In this document: piece after piece, positions 44,213 to 58,291 of the stretch | Position numbering within the stretch: position 1 is the first letter of the stretch | How the letters are laid out: every line of letters begins with the position of its first letter | The notes under the pieces: model-generated | What the model was told of the DNA's origin: nothing | What the model saw: the letters and a program-made list of their open reading frames with translations, nothing else | The model's database searches: none | Source of the DNA: Mycobacteriales bacterium | Lineage (GTDB): Bacteria > Actinomycetota > Actinomycetes > BP-191 | Assembly (NCBI GenBank): GCA_035536235.1 | Contig: DATLOQ010000045.1 | Coordinates: 40,882-104,881 of the forward strand | Direction: 5' to 3' | Length of the DNA stretch: 64,000 nucleotides | Translations under genes and position numbers: made by a program

Positions 44213-44779
44213 TCAGTCGCGCAGCGGGAGCTCCAGCTCCGAGGCGCTGATCGACGCGGTGCCGTCCCGCTCGGCCCGATCGGCGAGGCGCCGCGCGGCC
44301 GCCTGCAGCCGCCGTACGCCGACGCCGAAGTGCGCGTCGGGGTAGGCAGTCAGCTTGTCCGCAGCGCGTCGCAGGATGGTGGCAGCGCCGACCGCGTTGC
44401 CGCGCTGGATGTGGGTGAGGCCGACGGCAAGCTGGGCCAAGCCCTGCCAGAAGTCCCGATCCGGCGGGTCAGCGAGATGCCACGGACCCTCCAACACCTC
44501 GTGGGCATAGAACGGGGCGCCGCCGAGGATCAGCCGCTGGGCTTCCTCGATCGCGTCGTCGGGCGGCAATGAGGTCTCGCGGTCCCCGACGGCGAGGCGT
44601 TCCCGCCACGGCGTGGGAGTGCCGGGTGGCAGCGGCGCGCCGGTGATGTCCCGTGGTCGCTGGCTCAGTGGCCGACCGGCGCTGTCTCGCGAACGCGGGG
44701 TGGGCGACGGAGCGGCGGCGGCATCCCCCGCGTCCGCATCGGTGCCGTCCGGCGGCACCGTCATGACTGCTTGGCCCAT
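44213..44779 (-). CDS. DUF309 domain-containing protein
   Basis: Conserved helical region FYAHEVLEGPWHLADPPDRDFWQGLAQLAVGLTHIQRGN. Confidence 0.5.
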   Translation of the reverse strand: MGQAVMTVPPDGTDADAGDAAAAPSPTPRSRDSAGRPLSQRPRDITGAPLPPGTPTPWRERLAVGDRETSLPPDDAIEEAQRLILGGAPFYAHEVLEGPWHLADPPDRDFWQGLAQLAVGLTHIQRGNAVGAATILRRAADKLTAYPDAHFGVGVRRLQAAARRLADRAERDGTASISASELELPLRD

Positions 44780-45726
44780 CGGACGATCTCTGCCGTCACC
44801 AGGTCGGGTGCCTCCTCAGCGGGGAAGTGCCCGACGCCGTCGAGCAGCCGCCACTCATAGACCCCCTCGACGTAGCGACCGGAGCCGAGCGCCGTGCGCG
44901 GCAGCAGGCACCCGTCCATCGCCCCATGCAGCTGCAGGGTCGGGGCGCCGACCGGCCGCTGCATCCGCTTGGCGAACCGGTAGCCGTCTGGCCGTACGAC
45001 GGACCGCACCGCCCAGCGGTAGTACTCCATGGCGCAGTAGGCGACCGTCGGGATCTGCATGGCGGTGCGGTAGATGCGGTCCGTGGCGGCATCGGGGAAG
45101 CCAGGCCCGCCCCAGTCGTGGAGCAGGCGGGACACTCGCTCGGCGTCATCCTTGACCAGGAGCCGCTCCGCCAGCCACGGCGCCTGGAAGGCCAGCACGT
45201 ACCAGCTGGCCCGGAGCTGGCCGCGCGGGTCGACGACGACTTGGGCTCGGAGGCGCAGCGGGTGCGGCATCGAGAGGATGACCAGCCGCGAGACCACCTC
45301 GGGGTGAAGCGTTGCGACTGCCCAGGCGAGGAGGCCCCCCCAGTCGTGCCCGACGATGACCGCGTCGCGTTCACCCAGCCCGCGGACGAGGCCGGCGACG
45401 TCCGCCGCGAGGGTGTAGATGTCATAGCCCCGCGGCGGCTTGTCGCTCGCGCCGTACCCGCGCAGGTCCGGGGCGACCGCACGAAATCCGTGCTGCGGCA
45501 GGTCGGTCAGCTGGTGCCGCCACTGCCACCACATCTGCGGGAAGCCGTGCAGCATGAGGACGAGCGGGCCGTCACCTGCTTCGGCAACGTGGAAGCGCGC
45601 GCCGTTGGCGGAGACGTCCCGGTGGCGCCATGGGCCGGAGAGCAGGATGTCGCTCTCGGCCGCCATGGCGGCAGCGTCCCACAGCCAGGGCGCGCGGGGC
45701 AGACCGCACTCGTAGCATTCCGGCAT
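44761..45726 (-). CDS. Alpha/beta hydrolase (epoxide hydrolase family, EphE-like)
   Basis: HGFPQMWWQWRHQ...GHDWGG. Confidence 0.8.
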   Translation of the reverse strand: MPECYECGLPRAPWLWDAAAMAAESDILLSGPWRHRDVSANGARFHVAEAGDGPLVLMLHGFPQMWWQWRHQLTDLPQHGFRAVAPDLRGYGASDKPPRGYDIYTLAADVAGLVRGLGERDAVIVGHDWGGLLAWAVATLHPEVVSRLVILSMPHPLRLRAQVVVDPRGQLRASWYVLAFQAPWLAERLLVKDDAERVSRLLHDWGGPGFPDAATDRIYRTAMQIPTVAYCAMEYYRWAVRSVVRPDGYRFAKRMQRPVGAPTLQLHGAMDGCLLPRTALGSGRYVEGVYEWRLLDGVGHFPAEEAPDLVTAEIVRWAKQS

Positions 45727-46132
45727 GGGGATCTTCCGCCGCCGCGCGCTCCCCGCCCACCTGGAGTCGGCGTATGAGGCCTTCCTGCGATGCGCGGAGC
45801 ATGTCGACCTCGGGCAGCGGGCGATGATCCGCTGCGTCCCGTCGTCGGCCCGGGCTGTCGGTCTGCCGCTCGCCGTGGGCGCGCAGACCCTGGCGATGTC
45901 CTTGGACGAAGCGCGGGCAGAGATGCCCCGCTGGCATCATCCCGATGTGGCGGGGATCTGGGCGGACTGCTCGGCGGCACTGGACGAGACGTCCCGGGCG
46001 GTGGGCCGCGCCGTCGAGATCGCGGCTGCGACGAGGGAGCTCGAGGTCGCGCTGACCGCCGTGCAGGACCTCCTCGACCCGCTCCACGCCTTCGTCGACG
46101 CGGAGGCGCGCTTCGCCGAGCTGCGTCGTTGA
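45725..46132 (+). CDS. Hypothetical protein
   Basis: 135-aa helical ORF, convergent with the downstream paralog array. Confidence 0.35.
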   Translation: MGIFRRRALPAHLESAYEAFLRCAEHVDLGQRAMIRCVPSSARAVGLPLAVGAQTLAMSLDEARAEMPRWHHPDVAGIWADCSAALDETSRAVGRAVEIAAATRELEVALTAVQDLLDPLHAFVDAEARFAELRR

Positions 46133-46161
46133 GCGGTCCTCGTTGAGCTGTGCCCGTTGAG

Positions 46162-46701
46162 CTATAGCGCCGAGCACTCGCCGGTGCGGCGCTCAGCCGC
46201 GAAGACGTACTGCCCCCCCTGGTAGGCGAGGCGTACGACGAAGCCGCCCCCGGACACTCGCTCCTTGATGCTGTTGTAGTAGGTGGTCGCCGTGACGGCG
46301 AAGTCCGCCCGTCGGAAGTCGGCGCTCACCGACTGCTCTCGCACCGTGAGGTCGAGCGCGCCCGCACACAGCTGCTGCGCGACGTCGCGCAGGGCGGCCT
46401 GGACGCCGAGCTGGCTGGGCATGGAGACGACCCGCCCCGCGTCGCCGCGGACCGAGTCACGGAGGTTGTCGCCCGCGGCGACGTCGTCGTACGCCGGTCG
46501 GGACCCGTAGACCCGCACGGCGCCCGTCGCCGGAGCGAGACCTGCCGCGGTGCCCGCAGGGGCTGACCGGACGGCCGTCCCACCGGCGAGGAGGAGCACA
46601 GCCACCGCACTCGCGAGCCCGTCGATGACCCGGGAGCGCCGAAGGGACCAGGGCAGCTGCCGCCGCGTTTCGTCAGTCCCCCGAGCGATCACCTCAGCCA
46701 A
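46162..46701 (-). CDS. Paralog 1 of a tandem triplet of single-pass membrane proteins (unknown function)
   Basis: N-terminal RRQLPWSLRR motif, one TM helix, C-terminal FVVRLAYQGGQYV...GEC. Confidence 0.45.
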   Translation of the reverse strand: MAEVIARGTDETRRQLPWSLRRSRVIDGLASAVAVLLLAGGTAVRSAPAGTAAGLAPATGAVRVYGSRPAYDDVAAGDNLRDSVRGDAGRVVSMPSQLGVQAALRDVAQQLCAGALDLTVREQSVSADFRRADFAVTATTYYNSIKERVSGGGFVVRLAYQGGQYVFAAERRTGECSAL

Positions 46702-47188
46702 GACAGGGCTCCGACGACTCCTGGACCGAGTAGCTGATCCCGGTCCCGCGGGGCAGCCGGGACACTTTCAAGCGGAGTGCTGGAGCCCGGCCAGGGAGGC
46801 CAGCGGCGACCGTGGCGATGCTCACATCTCGGTTGTGCTCTGCCACGGAGTAGGTGAACCCTGCGGTCTCGGTGCAGATGAGCCCAGCAGCGAACCGGGC
46901 GACGTTCTGCGCCGTGCGTAGCCGGGCCTGCTCTTCGGCCGAGCTGATCTGCGGCAGCGGAGATGGGGACGGCGAGGGCGAGGTGGTCGCTGGCTGGCTG
47001 GCCGGCAGGTTCGGCGCGCTGCGCCGGTCAGTGACAACGGCGGAGGCGACCAGCAGGTGCACCGCGAGCGTCGCGCCGATAGCTGACCCCAGCGTGTCGA
47101 GCGGCAACGATCGTCGCGCCCGCTCGCTCCCTGCAAGCAGGAGGTCCGGAGCAGGCTTAGCCACTTTCACACCCGCCGTACGCCTCAC
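46694..47188 (-). CDS. Paralog 2 of the tandem triplet (more diverged)
   Basis: RRSLPL motif, TM helix, C-terminal LRLKVSRLP...EPC; overlaps neighbours by 8 and 32 nt. Confidence 0.4.
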   Translation of the reverse strand: MRRTAGVKVAKPAPDLLLAGSERARRSLPLDTLGSAIGATLAVHLLVASAVVTDRRSAPNLPASQPATTSPSPSPSPLPQISSAEEQARLRTAQNVARFAAGLICTETAGFTYSVAEHNRDVSIATVAAGLPGRAPALRLKVSRLPRGTGISYSVQESSEPCLG

Positions 47189-47717
47189 TGATCTGGCCGA
47201 CGTACTCGCCTTCTCGCCATGACAACCGGAGCACGAAGCCGGCGGACTTGCGGGGCGTGTCGCTGGCGCGGCCGACCAGGAACGTGGCTGTCCGGCCCTC
47301 CTCCGCTGCGCTGGCAGAGTCGGCAGCGGCGTCGACTCGGCGGTAGCGGGGACGCTCGATATTGCGGCACTGCCTGACCGCGACGAGCTCGGCCGCGCGC
47401 CGCGCTGTACGCCCGCTCGGACGCACGACGGGCGCCACGACGACGGCGCCGGTTGAGCTGATGCTCACGGCTGCGCGCATCGGCTCCTGGTGTTCTGAGG
47501 ACCGACCGGCGGGGCCCGCGAGCGTGGCGGAGCCGGATGAGGCCCGCTGAGCTGCTGCCGTGCCCGCGGCGACCAGAACGCCGACCACCCCTATTGCCAG
47601 CGCCGTCGTCAAGCGGTCGCGGCGCAGCGTCCACGGCAGTCGCCGGCCGGCCCGCGGCGCGCGCTCTGCGGGCCCCCAGGACAGCACCTCTCGCGATCCG
47701 CTCGACTCTCCTGGCAT
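47157..47717 (-). CDS. Paralog 3 of the tandem triplet
   Basis: RRLPWTLRR motif, TM helix, C-terminal FVLRLSWREGEYV...GGC; starts 6 nt after the acs stop. Confidence 0.45.
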   Translation of the reverse strand: MPGESSGSREVLSWGPAERAPRAGRRLPWTLRRDRLTTALAIGVVGVLVAAGTAAAQRASSGSATLAGPAGRSSEHQEPMRAAVSISSTGAVVVAPVVRPSGRTARRAAELVAVRQCRNIERPRYRRVDAAADSASAAEEGRTATFLVGRASDTPRKSAGFVLRLSWREGEYVGQISEAYGGCESG

Positions 47718-47722
47718 GGCGG

Positions 47723-49678
<1,956 letters not shown>

Positions 49679-49756
49679 GGCGGCTCCTCGCAGCGGCGGC
49701 GTCCTACTCTCGCTGATGCCGCCACGCGATGCCAGGCGCGGTAGGGGCGCCGAGCG

Positions 49757-50254
49757 TCAGCTGCCGACGACGTACGCCGCGTCGGTGGCAGCGGTGTCGC
49801 CGCCGGGGGCGCCGGCAAGCGCACCGCCGGGCGTGCTGCTCACGGCGATGTCGCTCAGCTCGGTCCCGGGCTTGAGCGCGCCCTTCGCCGGCATCGTGAA
49901 GACGATCTTGTTGCCGCTGATCTTCACTGCCGGCGGACTCGCATTCGATCCGGTGCACCCTCCGCTGCTGCTGCCGTCCACGCCGAAGACGTTGCCCCGC
50001 CAGGTGCAGTTGTCGTCGGTGCTGAAACGCAGCTGGTAGGCGAACGGCACCGGCGTATTCGGTGGCCCGGCGAACTCCACCGTGACCACGAGCTTCGTCT
50101 TCTTCTCGGTGACGAACAGGGCGGAGACGATGTCGGCACCGGCTACCGGGTAGTCACCCCTCGGATCGGTGAGCTGCGGCTTCGGCGCCGCGCCGGCGTG
50201 CGGCGCTGCGAGGGCGATCACTGCGATCGCGGCAGCGAGAACGGTACGTCGCAT
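49757..50254 (-). CDS. Secreted protein, paralog A (unknown family)
   Basis: Signal peptide; conserved DPRGDYPVAGADIVS and paired Cys. Confidence 0.5.
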   Translation of the reverse strand: MRRTVLAAAIAVIALAAPHAGAAPKPQLTDPRGDYPVAGADIVSALFVTEKKTKLVVTVEFAGPPNTPVPFAYQLRFSTDDNCTWRGNVFGVDGSSSGGCTGSNASPPAVKISGNKIVFTMPAKGALKPGTELSDIAVSSTPGGALAGAPGGDTAATDAAYVVGS

Positions 50255-50293
50255 GGATGCTCCCCCGTCGAAGCTGAAGTTGCCGGTGGGAAT

Positions 50294-50331
50294 TCGACAG
50301 CTCCCGGGCGGATTCCTGCCCGGGAGCTGTC
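50294..50331. terminator. Strong hairpin between the tandem secreted-protein paralogs
   Basis: tcgacagctcccgggc - ggattcct - gcccgggagctgtcg (15-bp stem). Confidence 0.5.
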
Positions 50332-50354
50332 GTCGAATGCCGGTGGGTGTGCGG

Positions 50355-50864
50355 TTACTTGACCACGTAGGTCGCGTCGCCCGTCGCGGTGTCACCGGCA
50401 GCGCCGGGCCCGGAGCCGGAGAGCACGCCGCCGGGGGCGGAGTAGATCGCGAAGGCGGTGATCTTGGTGCCCAGCTTGAACGCACCCTTGGTCGGCACCG
50501 AGAACGTCAAGGTGTTGCCGTTGATCTTGACGCCGGAGGGGGCTGAGGAGTTGTCGCCGCGGCAGCCGCCGGACACCTCGTCGTTGGCGCCGAAGTAGTT
50601 GACCCGCCAGTCGCAGCTGCCCGCCATGAAGTTGATCTGGTAGGCGTAGGGAATGGGGGTGGCCGGGCTCGCCGGGCCGGCCAGCTCGAGGGCGATGACC
50701 AGCGTCTTCTTCTTCACGGTGCTGAGCGTGAGGGACACGATGTCGGCGCCAGCCACCGGGTAGTCGCCCTTGGGGTCGGTGACCTGCGGCGTCGGCGCTG
50801 CACTGGCGTGGGAGGCGAACAGGGCTCCGGAGAGTAGTACGGCGGTGAGGGCGACGCGGCGCAT
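50355..50864 (-). CDS. Secreted protein, paralog B
   Basis: Signal peptide; DPKGDYPVAGADIVS; same Cys pattern as paralog A. Start coordinate may be off by 1 nt. Confidence 0.5.
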   Translation of the reverse strand: MRRVALTAVLLSGALFASHASAAPTPQVTDPKGDYPVAGADIVSLTLSTVKKKTLVIALELAGPASPATPIPYAYQINFMAGSCDWRVNYFGANDEVSGGCRGDNSSAPSGVKINGNTLTFSVPTKGAFKLGTKITAFAIYSAPGGVLSGSGPGAAGDTATGDATYVVK

Positions 50865-51031
50865 GGCAATGTCCTTCGGGGGTTGGGGGTGCTGCGGGGG
50901 TCTTGCGGTGGTAACGACGACCTTCGTCTCCGGTGACGGCACTCCTGCCCCCCGCAAGGAAGAGTGCCGCGCATCAGTAGGCTCTCCGTTCGTGGCCGAA
51001 GGCGATCCGCTCGTCCCGCTGATGCACCTGC

Positions 51032-51747
51032 CGGACGTGGCGGAGCGGGTGCTCGCGGCGCGCGGCGGGGTCGACCGACTGCTCGGGGAGCGGGTGCTGC
51101 GCCGCCGCAGTGCAGAAGTGTCCGCGGAAGCGGGGCTGCGATCGGTGCGGGCCAGCGCCGCGCTCGAAGGAGTGGTCGTCAGCCTCGACGACCTGCGTCG
51201 CGGAGCAGACATTGACGCCCCGGCCGTCCAAGGCGCGCTCCGCGTCGGTCAGGAGATGAGCTCGCTAGGTCCCGTGCTCGACCGGGCCCCCATGCAGGCG
51301 TTGGCCCGGCTGCACGCGCTCGCCGCAGCGGACGCGGTACCCCGCTCCGAGCTCGGCCGGCCCCGAGAGCTCGGCCTGCCGCCTGCGCACGTGGTAGCTC
51401 GCCGACTAGCCACGCTCAGCGAGATCCTGGCAGCACCCACGTCGGTGTCGGCGGTAGTGGTCGCCGCCGTCGTGCATGGTGAAGTTCTTGCGCTGCAGCC
51501 CTTCTCCTGGGGCAATGGCCTGGTTGCGCGCGCTGCCGCCCGGATCGTGCTGGTGCATCGCGGAGTCGACCCCAAGGCGCTCACCGCGCCGGACGTCGGT
51601 CATGCCGTTGACCCCACGGCGTACGCCGATGCGGCCGCGCGCTTCGCTGCGGGAGACGTGCGTCCGTGGCTGCTCCACTGCGCCGACGCCTTGCTCGCCG
51701 GAGCGCAGGAAGGACAGGCGATCTGCTCGGCCCTGGAGCGCGGCTAG
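51032..51747 (+). CDS. Hypothetical protein
   Basis: Helical 238-aa ORF; the upstream part of the long ORF is antisense to paralog B. Confidence 0.4.
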
Positions 51748-51751
51748 CGGT

Positions 51752-52606
51752 TCAGCGCTGGTCGCGAATCACTGCCGGCACTTCGTCGAGGAGCTCGCGG
51801 GCGAGGAAGGTCAGCCCACCGATGCGCTCGGCGAGACGGTCGCCGGCGGTGGCATGCAGGTGCTGACCCCACACTCCGGCTTGGGCGGGCGTCGCTCCTC
51901 TGGCGAGCAGCCCGGCGACGAGTCCGGCAAGCACGTCGCCCGAGCCTGAGGTGCCCAGCCCGGGGTTGCCGGCCGCGTTGTGCCAGCGCGAACCGTCCGG
52001 TGCGACCACCCAGCCGCGGATCACGACGACAGCGCCGTAGCGCTCCGCGACCGCAGCCGCCGTGGTCTCATCCTCGACGGCGTCTTCGGTGTCGAGCAGG
52101 GCGGCCAGCTCACCTGAGTTCGGCGTCAGCACGGCAGCTGCCCCGAGGAGGTCACGGGAGCGCCCCAGCGCTGCCAGGCCGGCCAGTGCCCCTGCGTCGA
52201 CCACCACCGGCGCGCCCTTGCGAAAGCGGAGCGCGCGGTCGATCAGCTCAGGCGCGCTGCCCCTCGACAGTCCGGGGCCCAGCACGAGCGCATCGGCAGT
52301 GGCTAGCCGGGTGTCCACCGCAGCGAGCGCCGCAGGGTCTATGCCCCCGTCGCTGTCGGCGGCAAGGCCGACAACGAGCGCCTCCGGCACGGTCACCCCG
52401 AGGGCCGCAGAGGTGGGCTCGACGGTGACGATCTGCAGGCGTCCAGCACCGGCGCGCAGCGCAGCGAGACCGGCGAGAAGGACGGCACCAGGAGTCTCCG
52501 TCGTACCACCGAGGACGACCACCGTGCCCCGGTCATGCTTGTCGCCGTCGCCGCCGGGCGCGGGGAGGGCCCACTGCCGCAGCAGATCAGCGGTGACCTG
52601 GACCAT
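51752..52606 (-). CDS. nnrD: NAD(P)H-hydrate dehydratase (YjeF C-terminal carbohydrate-kinase-like domain)
   Basis: DKHDRGTVVVLGG...GSGDVLAGLV. Confidence 0.75.
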   Translation of the reverse strand: MVQVTADLLRQWALPAPGGDGDKHDRGTVVVLGGTTETPGAVLLAGLAALRAGAGRLQIVTVEPTSAALGVTVPEALVVGLAADSDGGIDPAALAAVDTRLATADALVLGPGLSRGSAPELIDRALRFRKGAPVVVDAGALAGLAALGRSRDLLGAAAVLTPNSGELAALLDTEDAVEDETTAAAVAERYGAVVVIRGWVVAPDGSRWHNAAGNPGLGTSGSGDVLAGLVAGLLARGATPAQAGVWGQHLHATAGDRLAERIGGLTFLARELLDEVPAVIRDQR

Positions 52607-53364
52607 CAGTGCGGGCCTGCCGGCACGTCGGGCTGCGTCGTCACCGGCGCGTGCTCCTCAAGCAGCGGCGCGGTCTCGTTGTAGGTGAGCAGTCGCATCC
52701 CGCCGCGCGGACCCAGGCCCTCGTCGAAGGCATATGTCGTCACCGAGCAGTTGGCGACCTCGGCGGCTCCGTCGATGGTCAGGACCTGCTCCTCGGTCAT
52801 CGACTCGATCACGTAGCGGAAGAGCAGCACGACGACCTGGTGCGCGATGACCACCACCTGCTCGCCGTCGCAGTTGCGGCGCATGTCGTCGAGAACCGAG
52901 CGGACGCGCAGCGCGACGTCGGACCACGACTCACCACCGGGGGGCCGGTGATAGAACTTGCCCAGCCTCGTGCGCCGCTGCGACTCCTCGGGGAAGATCG
53001 TCGTGATGCCGCGTCGGGTGAGCCCGTCGAGGATGCCGAACTCACGCTCGCGCAGCCGCTCGTCGAGCACCGTCGAGACTGTCAGCCGCCCTTCTTCGGC
53101 CATGATCTGCGCAGTTTGCTGGGCCCGCAGGTAGGGCGACACGTAGAGCGCGTGGGGTTGGTCGGCGCCGGGTTGGTGCGACCACCAGACACCGAGAGCC
53201 CGAGCCTGCTGGCGGCCCAGCTCGGACAGCGGCACGTCCATGTCCCGGTCCGCGATGTCGATGCGCTCGAGGCTGTTGGCCTCGGCATGGTCGCGGGCGA
53301 CGTTGCCGGCGCTCTCGCCGTGCCGGATGACGCTCAGTCGTGCGGGCCAGCTGCTGGTGGGCAC
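52606..53364 (-). CDS. Histidine phosphatase family protein (phosphoglycerate mutase-like)
   Basis: RHGES catalytic motif. Confidence 0.8.
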   Translation of the reverse strand: MPTSSWPARLSVIRHGESAGNVARDHAEANSLERIDIADRDMDVPLSELGRQQARALGVWWSHQPGADQPHALYVSPYLRAQQTAQIMAEEGRLTVSTVLDERLREREFGILDGLTRRGITTIFPEESQRRTRLGKFYHRPPGGESWSDVALRVRSVLDDMRRNCDGEQVVVIAHQVVVLLFRYVIESMTEEQVLTIDGAAEVANCSVTTYAFDEGLGPRGGMRLLTYNETAPLLEEHAPVTTQPDVPAGPH

Positions 53365-53408
53365 GGGGTCATCCTGCCCGACAACGCGGCCGTCGAACGC
53401 CGTACAGC

Positions 53409-53445
53409 AAACGGCGCTTCAGCGGGCCAGCCGCTGAAGCGCCGT
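53409..53445. terminator. Perfect 16-bp hairpin between two minus-strand genes
   Basis: aacggcgcttcagcgg-gccag-ccgctgaagcgccgtt. Confidence 0.5.
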
Positions 53446-53707
53446 TACCTCACGAGTACCGCGGTTACCAAGCGTGCTCCTGATCGTCGAAGCGGTTGGG
53501 CGCTTGCGCGTCTCCTCACCTCGACGTGCCTCCCGCGGCTGGTCGCACGTGGGTGCTCATCAGTACTCGTGAAACGAGCGTGAGGAGGGGGGACTCGCCC
53601 ACCGCGCCGGCGGCTCGCACTGCCAGTTGTACGCCGGTGCAGCGCCGTTGTGAACCCCTCCGATGGGACTACTTTTCGCCGGGCGCCGGCCACGGGCTGT
53701 CATCGCC

Positions 53708-54571
53708 TCAGCAGCGGGTTGCCCGGCGTCGGGCGGCCAGCATCCGCCACCCGAGAGCGACCGCGCCGACGCCAACTGCGGCCCCGGCGAGAACCGGGAC
53801 GGGAGGGCGCGTGAAGGTCGGCACTCTGGACCGCAGCCCTACCGGGCGGGTGAAGTCGCGCACCTCCCACCCGCGCTGGACCGCAACGCGACGCAGCGCC
53901 TTGTCGGGGTTGACGACGACCGGGTGCCCGACGGCGTCGAGCATGGGGAGATCGGTGATCGAGTCGCTGTAGGCCCAGCAGTCGGCGAGGAACCAGCCCT
54001 GCTCAGCCGCGAGGGCTTCGATTGCCTCCGCCTTGTGCACGCCGTAGGCGTAGAAGGCGATGTCGCCGGTGTAGCGCCCGTCTTCGATCACCATGCGCGT
54101 GGCGATCGCGTGGTCCGCTCCGACCATCTCGGCGATGGGTGTCACCACCTCCTCCCCCGAGGACGAGACGATGACCACCGCCCGCCCGGCAGCCTGATGG
54201 CCTTCGATGAGGGAGACCGCTTCGTCGTAGACCAGCGGGTCGATGAGGTCGTGGAGGGCCTCCTCGACGATGGAGCGCACCTGGTCGACCGGCCAGCCGG
54301 CGCACAGCCCCTTGAGGTAGTCGCGCATCCGAGCCATCTGGTCGGCGTCGGCACCCGCGATGAGGTAGACGAACTGCGCGTAGCTGCTCCGAAGCACAGC
54401 GCGCCGGTTGACGAGCCCGCCCTGGTAGAAGGTCCGGCCGAAGGCGAGCGTGCTGGACTTCGCGATGACCGTTTTGTCCAGGTCGAAGAACGCCGCGCCG
54501 CCCATGAGCCAAAGATAGTTCTCCGAGGAGGTTTGGCCGGGGAGGAGGTGGGCATCCTCAGCAGTGAGCAC
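53708..54571 (-). CDS. HAD-IB family hydrolase
   Basis: AAFFDLDKTV motif I, SSSGEEVV motif, C-terminal hydrophobic tail. Confidence 0.75.
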   Translation of the reverse strand: MLTAEDAHLLPGQTSSENYLWLMGGAAFFDLDKTVIAKSSTLAFGRTFYQGGLVNRRAVLRSSYAQFVYLIAGADADQMARMRDYLKGLCAGWPVDQVRSIVEEALHDLIDPLVYDEAVSLIEGHQAAGRAVVIVSSSGEEVVTPIAEMVGADHAIATRMVIEDGRYTGDIAFYAYGVHKAEAIEALAAEQGWFLADCWAYSDSITDLPMLDAVGHPVVVNPDKALRRVAVQRGWEVRDFTRPVGLRSRVPTFTRPPVPVLAGAAVGVGAVALGWRMLAARRRATRC

Positions 54572-54935
54572 GTCACACAGTCAGCGCGGGGGGGTGTACA
54601 AGATGCGCAGAGTCGTCGCTGGAGACCTGGACCAGGTGTCCGAGACCCGCGTCGTCGAGCACCGCTCCGTTGCTGAGACCATCGCCTCTGTCATCACCGT
54701 CCTCTACGCCGCGGTGATCGCGCTCATCGGCATCGACGTGCTGCTCGAAGCCCTCGATGCCCGCGAGGAGAACGGTTTTGTCAGCGCCATCGACGGGCTG
54801 AGCGGCGCCTTCACCAAGCCTTTCGACGGCGTCTTCGCCGATCAGCGTTACTGGGCCACGGCGCTTATCGCCGCCGTCGTCTACACCGTGATATATCTCA
54901 TCGCCATGGCGGCCTTACGACGCGACCCCGCCTAG
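54564..54935 (+). CDS. Small membrane protein (unknown function)
   Basis: Two predicted TM helices; start ambiguous (54564 or 54603). Confidence 0.35.
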   Translation: MSTSHSQRGGVYKMRRVVAGDLDQVSETRVVEHRSVAETIASVITVLYAAVIALIGIDVLLEALDAREENGFVSAIDGLSGAFTKPFDGVFADQRYWATALIAAVVYTVIYLIAMAALRRDPA

Positions 54936-54944
54936 CGCCCCCCA

Positions 54945-55060
54945 CGTTCTGACGCCATCCCCCCCCGGCGTCAGGCGCGTCTGGCTCACCCCCCGGAGCC
55001 AGACACCGGACGACCCCCGCCACCCCCCCCGGCGGGGGTCGTCCCATGTCCGGGGTCAGG
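54945..55060 (+). ncRNA. 6C small RNA (actinobacterial; B11-like)
   Basis: Three consecutive hairpins, each with a poly-C loop: ctgacgcc[atcccccccc]ggcgtcag; tctggctc[accccccg]gagccaga; ggacgacccccgcc[acccccccc]ggcgggggtcgtcc. Lies immediately upstream of the cpaE-like gene. Confidence 0.65.
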
Positions 55061-55290
55061 TGGGATCCTGCGCTGGCCCGTGCAGGACCTCGGCCCTCCC
55101 TCCCGCACGCCGCCCTGGTGATCAACGGTCCGTTGTTGCTCTCCAGTGCAGAAGTCCCCACCAGAGATGTCGCGGGTCGCCACTTCGGTGCGCATCCGCC
55201 GTCCACAGATCGGCGCCCGGGCGGTCACCGCCCGACCCGACGGTCCCAGGCTGAGCTTCTCCTCTCTCGCCTACTGCCCTTGGGGGCCCG

Positions 55291-56358
55291 ATGACTCGCC
55301 CGCTGCTCGTCACCGCTGATGAGGCCCGTTTGGACGACCTGCTGCGGCTCTGCGCCGCGGCGGGCGTCGAGCCGCAGGTGGCTCGCGACGTCGCCGCCGC
55401 GCGTCGCGCCTGGTCGGGCGCCACCGTCGTGCTGCTCTGCGACGACCTCGCCGCGTCACTCGCTCTTCCGGGTCTTCCCCGACGCCCCGGCGTCGTCCTC
55501 GTCGGCGCCGACCTCGACGACGCATCGGTGTGGCGCCGCGCCGTCGAGCTCGGTGCCGAGCACGTCGTCTTCCTGCCCGACGCGGACAGCTGGCTGGTGG
55601 ACCGGCTGGCCGGGGCCGGGGAGGCGGACCGTCTCGGCGTGGTGGTCGGGGTGATGGGCGGCCGGGGCGGGGCCGGCGCGACCACCTTGTCCGTCGCGCT
55701 CGCCGTCGCCTCCCAGCGACTGGGGCATCGGACGACCTTGTGCGACGTGGATCCACTCGGGGGCGGAGTCGATCTCGTGCTGGGGAGTGAGAGCGCACCA
55801 GGAGCCCGCTGGCCGGACCTGACCGGTGACGTTCGAGTGCCCGGGGGAGTGCTGTCGCTCGCTCCGTCCATCGACGACGTGGCGATGGTCAGCTGGGACC
55901 GCGGCGACGTCCTAGACCTGCCGCCGGGGGTGTGCGCCTCCGTGCTCAGCAGTGCGCGCCGATCGAGTGATGTGGTCGTCGTAGACCTGCCCCGCTCGGC
56001 TCCCTGGTGCGCGGTCGAGGGCTTGACCGCACTGGACACGCTGCTCCTCGTGGTTCCGCTAGAGGTGCGGGCCGTGGCCTCGACCGCACGAGTCGCCTCT
56101 GCTGTCGCGCCGTACGTCGACGACCTCCGGTTGGTGGTTCGCAGGCGGTCGGTGCCCGGTCTCGACCCGACCTTCGTGGGGGCCACTCTGGGGCTTCCGG
56201 TGGCCGGCGTGTTCAAGCCCGAGCGCTCCGTGGTCTCCGACCTCGACCGCGGGCTGCCGCCGGCAGGGGGCCGCGGCCACCTGGCCCGGCTGGCGACGCG
56301 TCTGGTGCGGGATTTCGTCGGGTCACCGGCGCGCGGAGCGGCCGGCGCGGCGGCGTGA
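55291..56358 (+). CDS. CpaE/TadZ-like Tad-locus ATPase-fold protein (septum-site-determining-like)
   Basis: N-terminal receiver-like region; GGRGGAGATTLSVALA deviant Walker A. Confidence 0.75.
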   Translation: MTRPLLVTADEARLDDLLRLCAAAGVEPQVARDVAAARRAWSGATVVLLCDDLAASLALPGLPRRPGVVLVGADLDDASVWRRAVELGAEHVVFLPDADSWLVDRLAGAGEADRLGVVVGVMGGRGGAGATTLSVALAVASQRLGHRTTLCDVDPLGGGVDLVLGSESAPGARWPDLTGDVRVPGGVLSLAPSIDDVAMVSWDRGDVLDLPPGVCASVLSSARRSSDVVVVDLPRSAPWCAVEGLTALDTLLLVVPLEVRAVASTARVASAVAPYVDDLRLVVRRRSVPGLDPTFVGATLGLPVAGVFKPERSVVSDLDRGLPPAGGRGHLARLATRLVRDFVGSPARGAAGAAA

Positions 56359-57506
56359 GCGAGACGGAGCTGCTGGACCGGGTGCGACGTCGGCTCGCGG
56401 CGCAGAGCGTCGAGCCGACGCCGGCGCGGATCGCTGCCGCGGTCCGGGCCGAAGGCGGGAGCCTGCCGCCCGCCGACGGGCTGAGCCTCCTGCAGCGCTT
56501 GCAGGACGACCTGCTCGGTGCGGGACCGTTGGCGCCGCTGCTGCGCGACACGGCGGTCACCGACGTCCTCGTCAACGCGGCCGACGAGGTGTGGGTGGAC
56601 CGCGGTCGCGGGCTCGAGCAGGCGGACATCTGCTTCGCCGATGACGACGACGTACGCCGGCTCGTCGCCCGTCTCCTCGTGCCCACCGGGCGACGTCTTG
56701 ACGACGCCCAGCCGTGGGTCGATGCGCGGCTGCCTGACGGCACGCGGCTGCACGCGATCCTCACGCCGATCGCCAGCCGCGGCACCTGCCTCTCGCTGCG
56801 CACTCTGGGCCGCCAGCACTTCACGTTGGCAGACCTCGCTGCGGCTGGGTCGGCCTCGCCCATCGTGGTCGAGGTGCTGGAGGCCGTCGTGCGAGCTCGG
56901 CTGTCGGTGCTGATCAGTGGCGGCACCGGGACGGGCAAGACCACGCTTCTGTCCTGCCTGCTCGGCCTCGTTGATGCGGGGGAGCGCATCGTCGTCGTCG
57001 AGGACTCGGCTGAGCTGCGGCCCACCTGCCGGCATGTCGTGCGGCTCGAGGCGCGCCCGCCCAACGTCGACGGTGCGGGCGAGGTGACTCTGCGCGATCT
57101 GGTGCGTCAGGCGATGCGGATGCGCCCCGACCGCCTCGTCGTGGGGGAGGTGCGCGGCGCCGAGGTGGCCGAGATGCTGGCGGCGCTCAACACAGGACAC
57201 GAGGGCGGCCTGTCGACCGTGCACGCCAACACCAGCCGCGACGTGCCGGCCCGGCTCGAGGCGCTGGGCAGCACGGCCGGGATGACGCGCGACGCCCTGC
57301 ACGCGCAGGCGGCGGCCGCACTCGACGTCATCGTGCACCTGCGGCGAGCGCGCGACGGACTGCGGACCGTCGCTGAGATCGGTGTAGTGACCCGAGGTGC
57401 GGACGGCCTGGTGGTGGTGCGCGGTGCGGTGGACCGGGACGGGCCAGCCGCCGGCTGGCCGGACCTCGTGGAGCTGCTCGGTGCCCGCGACGTCCACCTG
57501 CCGTGA
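56355..57506 (+). CDS. tadA: Tad pilus assembly ATPase TadA/CpaF
   Basis: Walker A GGTGTGKTT and secretion-ATPase His box. Confidence 0.85.
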   Translation: MSETELLDRVRRRLAAQSVEPTPARIAAAVRAEGGSLPPADGLSLLQRLQDDLLGAGPLAPLLRDTAVTDVLVNAADEVWVDRGRGLEQADICFADDDDVRRLVARLLVPTGRRLDDAQPWVDARLPDGTRLHAILTPIASRGTCLSLRTLGRQHFTLADLAAAGSASPIVVEVLEAVVRARLSVLISGGTGTGKTTLLSCLLGLVDAGERIVVVEDSAELRPTCRHVVRLEARPPNVDGAGEVTLRDLVRQAMRMRPDRLVVGEVRGAEVAEMLAALNTGHEGGLSTVHANTSRDVPARLEALGSTAGMTRDALHAQAAAALDVIVHLRRARDGLRTVAEIGVVTRGADGLVVVRGAVDRDGPAAGWPDLVELLGARDVHLP

Positions 57507-58291
57507 CGTCCGCGGAGCTGCTCCCTCCGGTCGCTGCTGGTGTGGCGGTCTGGCTGCTGGTCGCACCGGCCGCCACCTCCTCGCGCCAGTCAGGTCAACC
57601 GCTTGCTCTGCCCGCAGTGGACGCGCCGGTCGTGCTCGCCCTGGCCGGTGCCGGGGCCGGCCTCATCGTCTTTGGCGGGGTGCTGGGCGCCGGTCTCGGG
57701 GCCGCCCTGGGTGCGGGGGTGGGGCGGGCTGTGCAGCATCGGCGCACACATCAAGCGGAGGCCGCCGTACGAGGCGCACTGCCCGATGTGCTTCGCCTGC
57801 TGGCCGCCGAGCTGCAGGCGGGTGTGGCACCCGACGTCGCGCTGGGGTCGTGCAGTGCCGGTGCACCGCGCGCCCTCGCGATGCACCTGGGGTCGGTGAG
57901 CGCTGGCGCCCGACTGGGTTTGGACCCGGCCGTGACGCTGGCTCCAGGTCCGCCCGGCGCTGAGGGCCTGCGCGCTCTGGCCGCGTGTTGGCGGGTCAGT
58001 CAGTCCACCGGGTCCTCTCTCGGCATCGGTGTCGCCCGGCTGGCCAGCGGGCTGGCTGCCGAAGAACGCTGCCGGGCCGAGGTCGACGCCCAGCTCGCCG
58101 GTCCGCGCGCTTCGGCTGCGGTGCTGGCCACGCTGCCGCTCCTCGCGGTGACGATGTCGGTCGGCCTGGGCGCCTCGCCCCTCACGTTCTTCCGCACCCC
58201 GGTCGGCACTGCGTGTCTGGCCGTCGGAGCCGCACTCGACGTAGCCGGACTCCGCTGGACGCGACGTCTCGCCGCGGCGGCCACCCGGTGA
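57503..58291 (+). CDS. tadB: Tad pilus membrane protein TadB (T2SS F family)
   Basis: Multi-TM T2SSF-like protein; GTGA overlap with tadA. Confidence 0.7.
   Translation: MTSAELLPPVAAGVAVWLLVAPAATSSRQSGQPLALPAVDAPVVLALAGAGAGLIVFGGVLGAGLGAALGAGVGRAVQHRRTHQAEAAVRGALPDVLRLLAAELQAGVAPDVALGSCSAGAPRALAMHLGSVSAGARLGLDPAVTLAPGPPGAEGLRALAACWRVSQSTGSSLGIGVARLASGLAAEERCRAEVDAQLAGPRASAAVLATLPLLAVTMSVGLGASPLTFFRTPVGTACLAVGAALDVAGLRWTRRLAAAATR

Follow-up and report, generated by a model that had tools for sequence, protein, structure and literature searches.

A stretch of 64,000 nucleotides (nt) from an uncultured soil-dwelling Mycobacteriales bacterium (assembly GCA_035536235.1, contig DATLOQ010000045.1, positions 40,882 to 104,881), referred to here as the window, carries two adjacent minus-strand genes for small exported proteins, gene A and gene B, with a GC-rich hairpin in the 100-nt spacer between them. 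Two such paralogues of roughly 167 amino acids (aa) and about 50% identity had been described in the original prediction. The outer coordinates agree exactly with those found here, and A and B were 50% identical over 143 aa in BLASTP (E 5e-37). They are the only copies of their family in the window. GC content at third codon positions was 0.93 in A and 0.87 in B, as expected for real genes of this genome, and the ratio of nonsynonymous to synonymous substitution rates was about 0.33 for A (against the orthologue in the related locus L001) and about 0.3 for B (against its orthologues), which together mark both as constrained coding genes. The product of gene A is 100% identical to a metagenome-assembled genome (MAG) entry named “hypothetical protein, Mycobacteriales bacterium”. 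Longer open reading frames (ORFs) of 285 and 242 aa were listed mechanically, but their N-terminal extensions occur in no homologue, and all relatives start at the methionine of an MRR sequence. Both genes are preceded by Shine-Dalgarno-like sequences, and the 5' untranslated region (UTR) of gene A that includes GAAGGA can be aligned to L010 and L001. The promoter of A presumably lies in the divergent intergenic region upstream of it. Coordinates of all features are listed in Table 1.

Table 1. Features of the A-B locus, with positions counted from the first nucleotide of the window.
Feature	Position	Strand	Details	Basis
Gene A	50355..50864	-	A-type paralogue, 169-aa precursor (169 codons + TAA)	ORF reading
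Gene B	49757..50254	-	B-type paralogue, 165-aa precursor (165 codons + TGA)	ORF reading
Stem-loop between A and B	50295..50332	-	GC-rich, 15 perfect pairs + 2 inner pairs, no U-tract	inverted-repeat scan, folding
Signal peptide of A	50799..50864	-	residues 1-22, MRRVALTAVLLSGALFASHASA, predicted cut before APTPQ	read by eye
Signal peptide of B	50189..50254	-	residues 1-22, MRRTVLAAAIAVIALAAPHAGA, predicted cut before APKPQ	read by eye
Family signature block of A	50733..50777	-	residues 30-44, DPKGDYPVAGADIVS	
Family signature block of B	50123..50167	-	residues 30-44, DPRGDYPVAGADIVS	
Segment of A between invariant Cys codons	50562..50615	-	C84 (50613-50615) to C101 (50562-50564)	
Segment of B between invariant Cys codons	49955..50008	-	C83 (50006-50008) to C100 (49955-49957)	
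Shine-Dalgarno-like sequence of A	50872..50877	-	GAAGGA, 7 nt 5' of the ATG	sequence reading
Shine-Dalgarno-like sequence of B	50260..50266	-	GGGGGAG, 5 nt 5' of the ATG	sequence reading
Divergent intergenic region, gene A / Fic-like 250-aa gene	50865..50994	.	presumed gene A promoter region	
Spacer, gene B / acs	49679..49756	-	conserved leader motif GGCATC.GCGAG.GTAGG ... GGAGCCG; acs at 47723-49678	

Signal peptides were judged by inspection (basic n-region, hydrophobic h-region, and A-x-A motif). The N-terminus of A consists of MRR, VALTAVLLSGALF, and ASHASA followed by AP, with the A-x-A motif ending at residue 22, and that of B consists of MRR, TVLAAAIAVIALAA, and PHAGA followed by AP, with the cut at the same position. 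A22 is invariant in 18 close relatives and 89% conserved over 116 diverse family members, in which the MRR start is conserved as well. A structural model of B predicted with AlphaFold2 (AF2) contains a helix at residues 5-15 that has a low predicted local distance difference test score (pLDDT), corresponding to the signal-peptide region. By inspection, A and B appear to be exported by the Sec pathway and cleaved by signal peptidase I. A lipoprotein reading of the two proteins was rejected, as there is no lipobox Cys.

The common block starting with DP(R/K) that had been predicted is present as DP(K/R)GDYPVAGADIVS at residues 30-44 of both proteins, and in A it includes the invariant D34 and D41 and the near-invariant D30 and G33. 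Exactly two Cys occur in each protein, 17 residues apart in both (C84/C101 in A and C83/C100 in B), which bears out the equal spacing noted earlier. Across the 116 members, D34, D41, D158, and both Cys (C84 and C101) are invariant, while D30, G33, G116, and G132 are conserved in at least 90%. In the AF2 model of A, C84 opens strand 84-91, and strand 96-102 has C101 at its end.

The absence of a recognised family, also part of the original prediction, was upheld. Neither A nor B had any match in Pfam or NCBIfam at E ≤ 10, so no Pfam match explains both proteins. No Pfam family was common to the 116 relatives at E ≤ 1, two family consensus sequences compared to Pfam at E ≤ 10 gave only a chance-level match to LtfC, and searches of the PDB sequences with single proteins and with profiles returned chance matches only and no real sequence match. 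Word-indexed homologue searches recovered 3, 16, and 17 proteins, all of which are unnamed MAG or metagenome entries, and a scan of GTDB genomes with alignment A1 found two loci only. When 1.84 billion cluster representatives (clusters at 50% identity) were searched exhaustively with a HMMER profile, 324 proteins passed E ≤ 1e-3, with 99 of them reaching E ≤ 1e-10. All members for which the source was looked up are metagenomic, and the named ones belong to Mycobacteriales or Frankiaceae MAGs.

Nearly all family members stand alone, with a length of 165-220 aa and a signal-peptide-like N-terminus. Three family members (P0027, P0061, and P0147) contain two copies of the domain within one polypeptide, and P0151 (609 aa) combines an N-terminal region that has weak BNR/Asp-box matches with a single family copy at its C-terminus. 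These two-copy chains and the architecture of P0151 show that the family unit is an autonomous, portable domain. In a sub-group of members (P0013, P0014, P0016, and P0017), the C-terminus is extended by a short segment that ends with several Lys (SDRPKKKK) and may serve as a charge-based anchor to the cell envelope.

The AF2 models reached a pLDDT of 82.7 for A (18-sequence alignment) and of 89.9 for B (116 sequences), the latter with a predicted template modeling score of 0.84, and both are all-beta with 9-10 strands. As beta-sandwiches they superpose on solved members of the DOMON-like superfamily (DOMON, the EB_dh/NxrC heme subunits, CDH-cyt, CBM9, and Glucodextran_C), the fold of which has 10-11 strands, at a structure-based identity of 6-16%. 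A Foldseek search of the PDB found nothing significant and did not recover the DOMON-like families, to which the DPxGD...D(I/V) loop and the C84-C101 pair of A are not attributed. The DPxGD start may resemble the start of Glucodextran_C domains, a family whose model should be included in the Pfam scan, which gave no match. The MPT63-like or lipocalin-like fold suggested earlier was not borne out, as neither was among the fold matches. As regards a sugar-binding platform like the aromatic pair of CBM9, aromatic residues are present in at least 50% of members only at F47, Y73, Y/F90, W/F119, and Y161 (B numbering), all of them in predicted strands, where they may belong to the surface or to the core.

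Immunoglobulin (Ig) folds were prominent among the matches, partly due to the many antibody chains in the PDB. The Ig V-set differs from A and B by a shorter aligned length with the models and by an inter-sheet B-F disulfide with a packed Trp, whose Cys are about 65-75 residues apart, whereas the only conserved Cys pair of A and B is 17 residues apart on consecutive strands. An Ig-like role was also weighed in the context of the tad genes located nearby, where A and B would act as adhesins or accessory subunits of the Tad/Flp pilus. The tad genes are separated from the pair by HAD, histidine-phosphatase, NAD(P)HX-dehydratase, and Fic-like genes on mixed strands, and this context is not conserved, as distant members occur in unrelated neighborhoods without tad genes. 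The spacing of the Cys pair on adjacent strands is unlike the inter-sheet Ig disulfide, and neither a pilin-like N-terminal transmembrane segment nor a sortase motif is found in A or B. A role in the pilus is consequently considered improbable.

CDH cytochrome domains are included at the top of the list of fold matches for A, which brings up b-type cytochrome or redox DOMON domains (CDH-cyt, EB_dh gamma, NxrC) that bind heme for extracellular electron transfer. In the alignment of 116 sequences, no column of the mature region contains His or Met in 30% or more of the sequences and Lys reaches 41% at most, so the known pairs of axial ligands are absent. The EB_dh, DOMON, and CDH-cyt models of Pfam were all without a match, and no redox partner genes are located nearby. 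Heme binding of any of these types is extremely unlikely, and the cytochrome sub-type was excluded because the axial ligands (Met/His or Met/Lys) are not conserved.

Based on the predicted export, the Cys pair on consecutive antiparallel strands, and the four Asp in the N-terminal loop and last strand, together with a sandwich of a ligand-binding type and the attachment to other extracytoplasmic domains, we infer that A and B are secreted, disulfide-bonded, probably metal-stabilized, and non-catalytic binding modules of the cell envelope or the medium. The Cys pair (C84/C101) would form a disulfide across a beta-hairpin after export, and the four conserved Asp (D30, D34, D41, and D158) would form a putative structural metal site of the Ca2+ type, as in DOMON/CBM9-like sandwiches. 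Glycans are our best guess for the most likely class of ligand, by analogy with the CBM9 and Glucodextran_C fold neighbors and given the fusion to a BNR/Asp-box region. The family as a whole, which is uncurated, comprises small (~145 aa mature), Sec-exported, single-domain beta-sandwich proteins of a familiar kind and is not a new system.

Some distant members are located next to genes that deserve mention in their own right. A gene for an extracytoplasmic function (ECF) sigma factor and an unannotated gene of ~290 aa adjoin P0151 in L008 (5523-7014) and P0067 in L016 (4550-5913). The ~290-aa gene is possibly an anti-sigma factor, and the arrangement could be a link to envelope stress or a coincidence. 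P0151 also adjoins a convergent alpha-glucan cluster at L008:8001-17533, which consists of GH77, two alpha-amylase-family, and CBM48 isoamylase-like genes. At L014:756-3257, P0011 follows 40 nt downstream of genes for a GerE/LuxR regulator and a Reprolysin_3-like metalloprotease, unlike the acs locus.

Close relatives share a syntenic order of tad genes, HAD, in some cases histidine phosphatase and NAD(P)HX dehydratase, the divergent Fic-like gene, one or two family genes, and acs. The number of family copies at the Fic-like/acs site varies. L002-L004 contain a tandem pair, L001 only an A-type copy, and L007, L011, L012, and L013 only a B-type copy. The single copy of L005 (P0012) has the indels of A yet clusters with the B clade. 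An intact B-type gene follows a decayed A-type gene in L010, where the A remnant (L010:3610-3849) has its ATG changed to ACG, codons 2 to ~133 deleted, and the last 37 codons intact, with a 5' UTR that can be aligned to the region upstream of A in the window. In a neighbor-joining tree, A clusters with P0002 (97% bootstrap) and the remaining close members form a group of their own (99%), which places the duplication before the separation of these lineages and implies differential loss afterwards. Judged from their sequences, A and B are old tandem duplicates, and the gap in annotation is a modest one.

Pairing is not restricted to this locus. An independent tight tandem pair with 58% identity and a 24-nt spacer was found at L015:6001-7050, and two copies with 34% identity lie on either side of a major facilitator superfamily (MFS) transporter gene at L009:5681-8621. 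Both this recurrent pairing and the two-domain fusions hint at a possible joint action of two domains, which may also apply to the A and B copies of the window. That the family is a new class of Ca2+-stabilized, glycan-binding (CBM-like) secreted modules of soil Actinomycetota working in pairs, either as heterodimers of tandem-encoded paralogues or as two domains fused into a single chain, with an intercistronic stem-loop setting subunit stoichiometry in some lineages, is a speculative extension and rather unlikely.

The hairpin between the genes, originally placed at 50294-50331, is present with perfect 15-nt arms at 50295-50309 and 50318-50332 that are separated by 8 nt. It begins 22 nt past the stop codon of gene A and ends 40 nt before the ATG of gene B. 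The RNA of the coding strand folds with -35.7 kcal/mol (z = -8.0), and none of 200 shuffled sequences was as stable. The tail of the hairpin, AAUUCCCACCGG, is not a U-tract. No second occurrence of the arm sequence was found in the window, and an exact scan of metagenome_contigs gave 0 matches, so the hairpin is not a dispersed repeat. Rfam 15 returned no family above the gathering threshold, with best scores over the hairpin of 17.9-20.5 bits against the 70-79 bits required. Among the separated-loop inverted repeats of the 64 kb, just one other has perfect arms of at least 15 nt.

Two more intergenic hairpins were observed in the window, one at 53410-53446 (16-nt perfect arms, -33.6 kcal/mol, followed by UUUGCUG) and one at 54999-55053 (23-nt arms, -50.7 kcal/mol), neither of which is followed by a canonical U-tract. 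Such GC-rich stem-loops may be how genes are usually punctuated in this genome.

Conservation of the hairpin in relatives, which had been set as a test in the original prediction, was found only in part. The hairpin is not constant in tandem pairs and is absent from two of them, as the spacer of the L002-L004 pair is 23 nt long and unstructured and that of the L015 pair has 24 nt, whereas L010 retains a very stable hairpin of different sequence between the A remnant and the intact B. A stem-loop after the A-type gene thus seems to be maintained in the sub-lineage of L010. The hairpin is a lineage-specific and ordinary intercistronic stem-loop that is not essential to the pair, and no new mechanism is indicated.

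Stem-loops between cistrons are known to set unequal expression within operons, as the repetitive extragenic palindromic (REP) sequences of malEFG in E. coli and the stem-loop of the puf operon in Rhodobacter do. The hairpin of the window resembles these in being very stable, GC-rich, located just past the upstream cistron, without a U-tract, and probably within one transcription unit. It differs in that it is not repetitive and that the family's other tandem pairs do not have it. Compared to a canonical intrinsic (Rho-independent) terminator, it shares the GC-rich hairpin (15 + 2 bp) 22 nt past a stop codon, while the U-tract of 7-9 nt that such a terminator needs directly after the stem is missing. 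No canonical terminator-like site was found in a scan of 47000-53500, and a scan with sigma-70 promoter and terminator consensus sequences returned nothing, although this consensus says little for an actinobacterium. By eye, no -10 hexamer of the TANNNT type is present in the 40 nt between the hairpin and the start of gene B.

In the original prediction, the hairpin was thought to act as an attenuator or partial terminator that tunes the expression ratio of the two genes. The partial terminator is the weaker half of this idea, because the hairpin lacks a U-tract and because hairpins of this kind caused no termination by mycobacterial RNA polymerase in vitro, even when NusA and NusG were present (PMC3993855). 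The missing U-tract makes an intercistronic stabilizer or a weakly acting attenuator more probable than a terminator. The most likely arrangement would be the co-transcription of A and B from a promoter upstream of A, which is favored by the missing U-tract and by the lack of a visible -10-like hexamer between the hairpin and B. The stem-loop would then keep 3'-exonucleases away from the A segment upstream of it, or reduce read-through slightly, and A would exceed B. It is plausible that the A:B ratio is tuned in this way through mRNA processing or stability.

The main rival to this arrangement is a factor-independent, U-less terminator of the “I-shaped” type proposed for actinobacteria, with gene B transcribed from its own promoter. 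It would fit the high stability of the stem-loop and its position shortly after the stop codon of A, the length of the spacer, which far exceeds the 23-24 nt of other tandem pairs, and the two other strong hairpins without canonical U-tracts in intergenic spacers of the window. The in vitro result on U-less hairpins and the tail of the stem speak against it, as does the short distance to the ATG of B, in which no -10-like hexamer was seen. L010 is also difficult to reconcile with it, since the A promoter region, a hairpin, and an intact B have been retained there despite the decay of A. If B uses the A promoter in L010, where the A 5' UTR, the deleted A, a large hairpin, and B follow each other, that hairpin must permit read-through. 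Termination with a separate promoter for B is therefore regarded as a somewhat unlikely explanation.

A minor alternative is that the inverted repeat acts as DNA. It could be the operator of a dimeric regulator that controls gene B, or a palindrome prone to recombination that rearrangements of the locus have left behind. The perfect symmetry of the arms on both strands and the repeated deletions and copy losses among relatives would be in line with this, but GC-rich 15-bp arms around an 8-bp centre are atypical of operators and no second copy of the motif turned up in the window or in metagenome_contigs. In L010 the equivalent position is occupied by a hairpin with another sequence, which speaks for RNA structure, and not a DNA motif, as the target of selection. 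A function at the DNA level is very unlikely.

As a whole, the favored explanation, according to which A and B are old duplicates of an uncurated exported sandwich module and are co-transcribed with a stabilizing or attenuating stem-loop between them, is held with moderate confidence. Several points weigh against it. None of the DOMON-like Pfam models matches A, B, the 116 relatives, or the two consensus sequences, and the neighborhoods of distant members have no common theme, with an ECF sigma factor and alpha-glucan genes in L008, an MFS transporter in L009, a LuxR regulator and a metalloprotease in L014, and an ECF sigma factor in L016. The arms of the hairpin form a perfect DNA palindrome whose plus-strand RNA folds equally well (-38.2 kcal/mol), and B could have a promoter that lies within gene A or overlaps with the hairpin. 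Taken together, the observation of the original prediction is confirmed, while its interpretation is partly supported.

Further features of the locus concern the genes on both sides of the pair. The acs-upstream motif in the spacer after gene B is present in seven loci (the window, L001, L003, L007, L010, L011, and L012), regardless of the preceding family copy, and is a candidate promoter or leader element of acs. On the other side, a 250-aa protein encoded at 50995-51747 on the plus strand is divergent from gene A, a position kept in all close relatives, and its match to Fic/DOC is sub-threshold (E 8e-4, 20.6 bits against a cut-off of 24). The order of tad, Rv3660c_N-like, HAD, Fic-like, and acs genes at 44761-57566 of the window presumably resembles the Rv3660c-Rv3671c region of M. 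tuberculosis, in which dppABCD precedes acs. The L005 locus additionally contains a MarP-like protein with Colicin_V and trypsin domains.

The family represents a genuine annotation gap, as at least 324 clusters at 50% identity are covered by no Pfam or NCBIfam model, and it could be registered as a new domain family on the basis of a sharp signature that consists of DPxGD...D, two Cys, and a C-terminal GD. The locus also provides a natural experiment, in which one syntenic site is found with both genes intact, with one copy only, or with a copy in decay. If A and B are binding modules for glycans of the cell wall or the environment, the family would add a type of module to those of uncultured soil actinobacteria.
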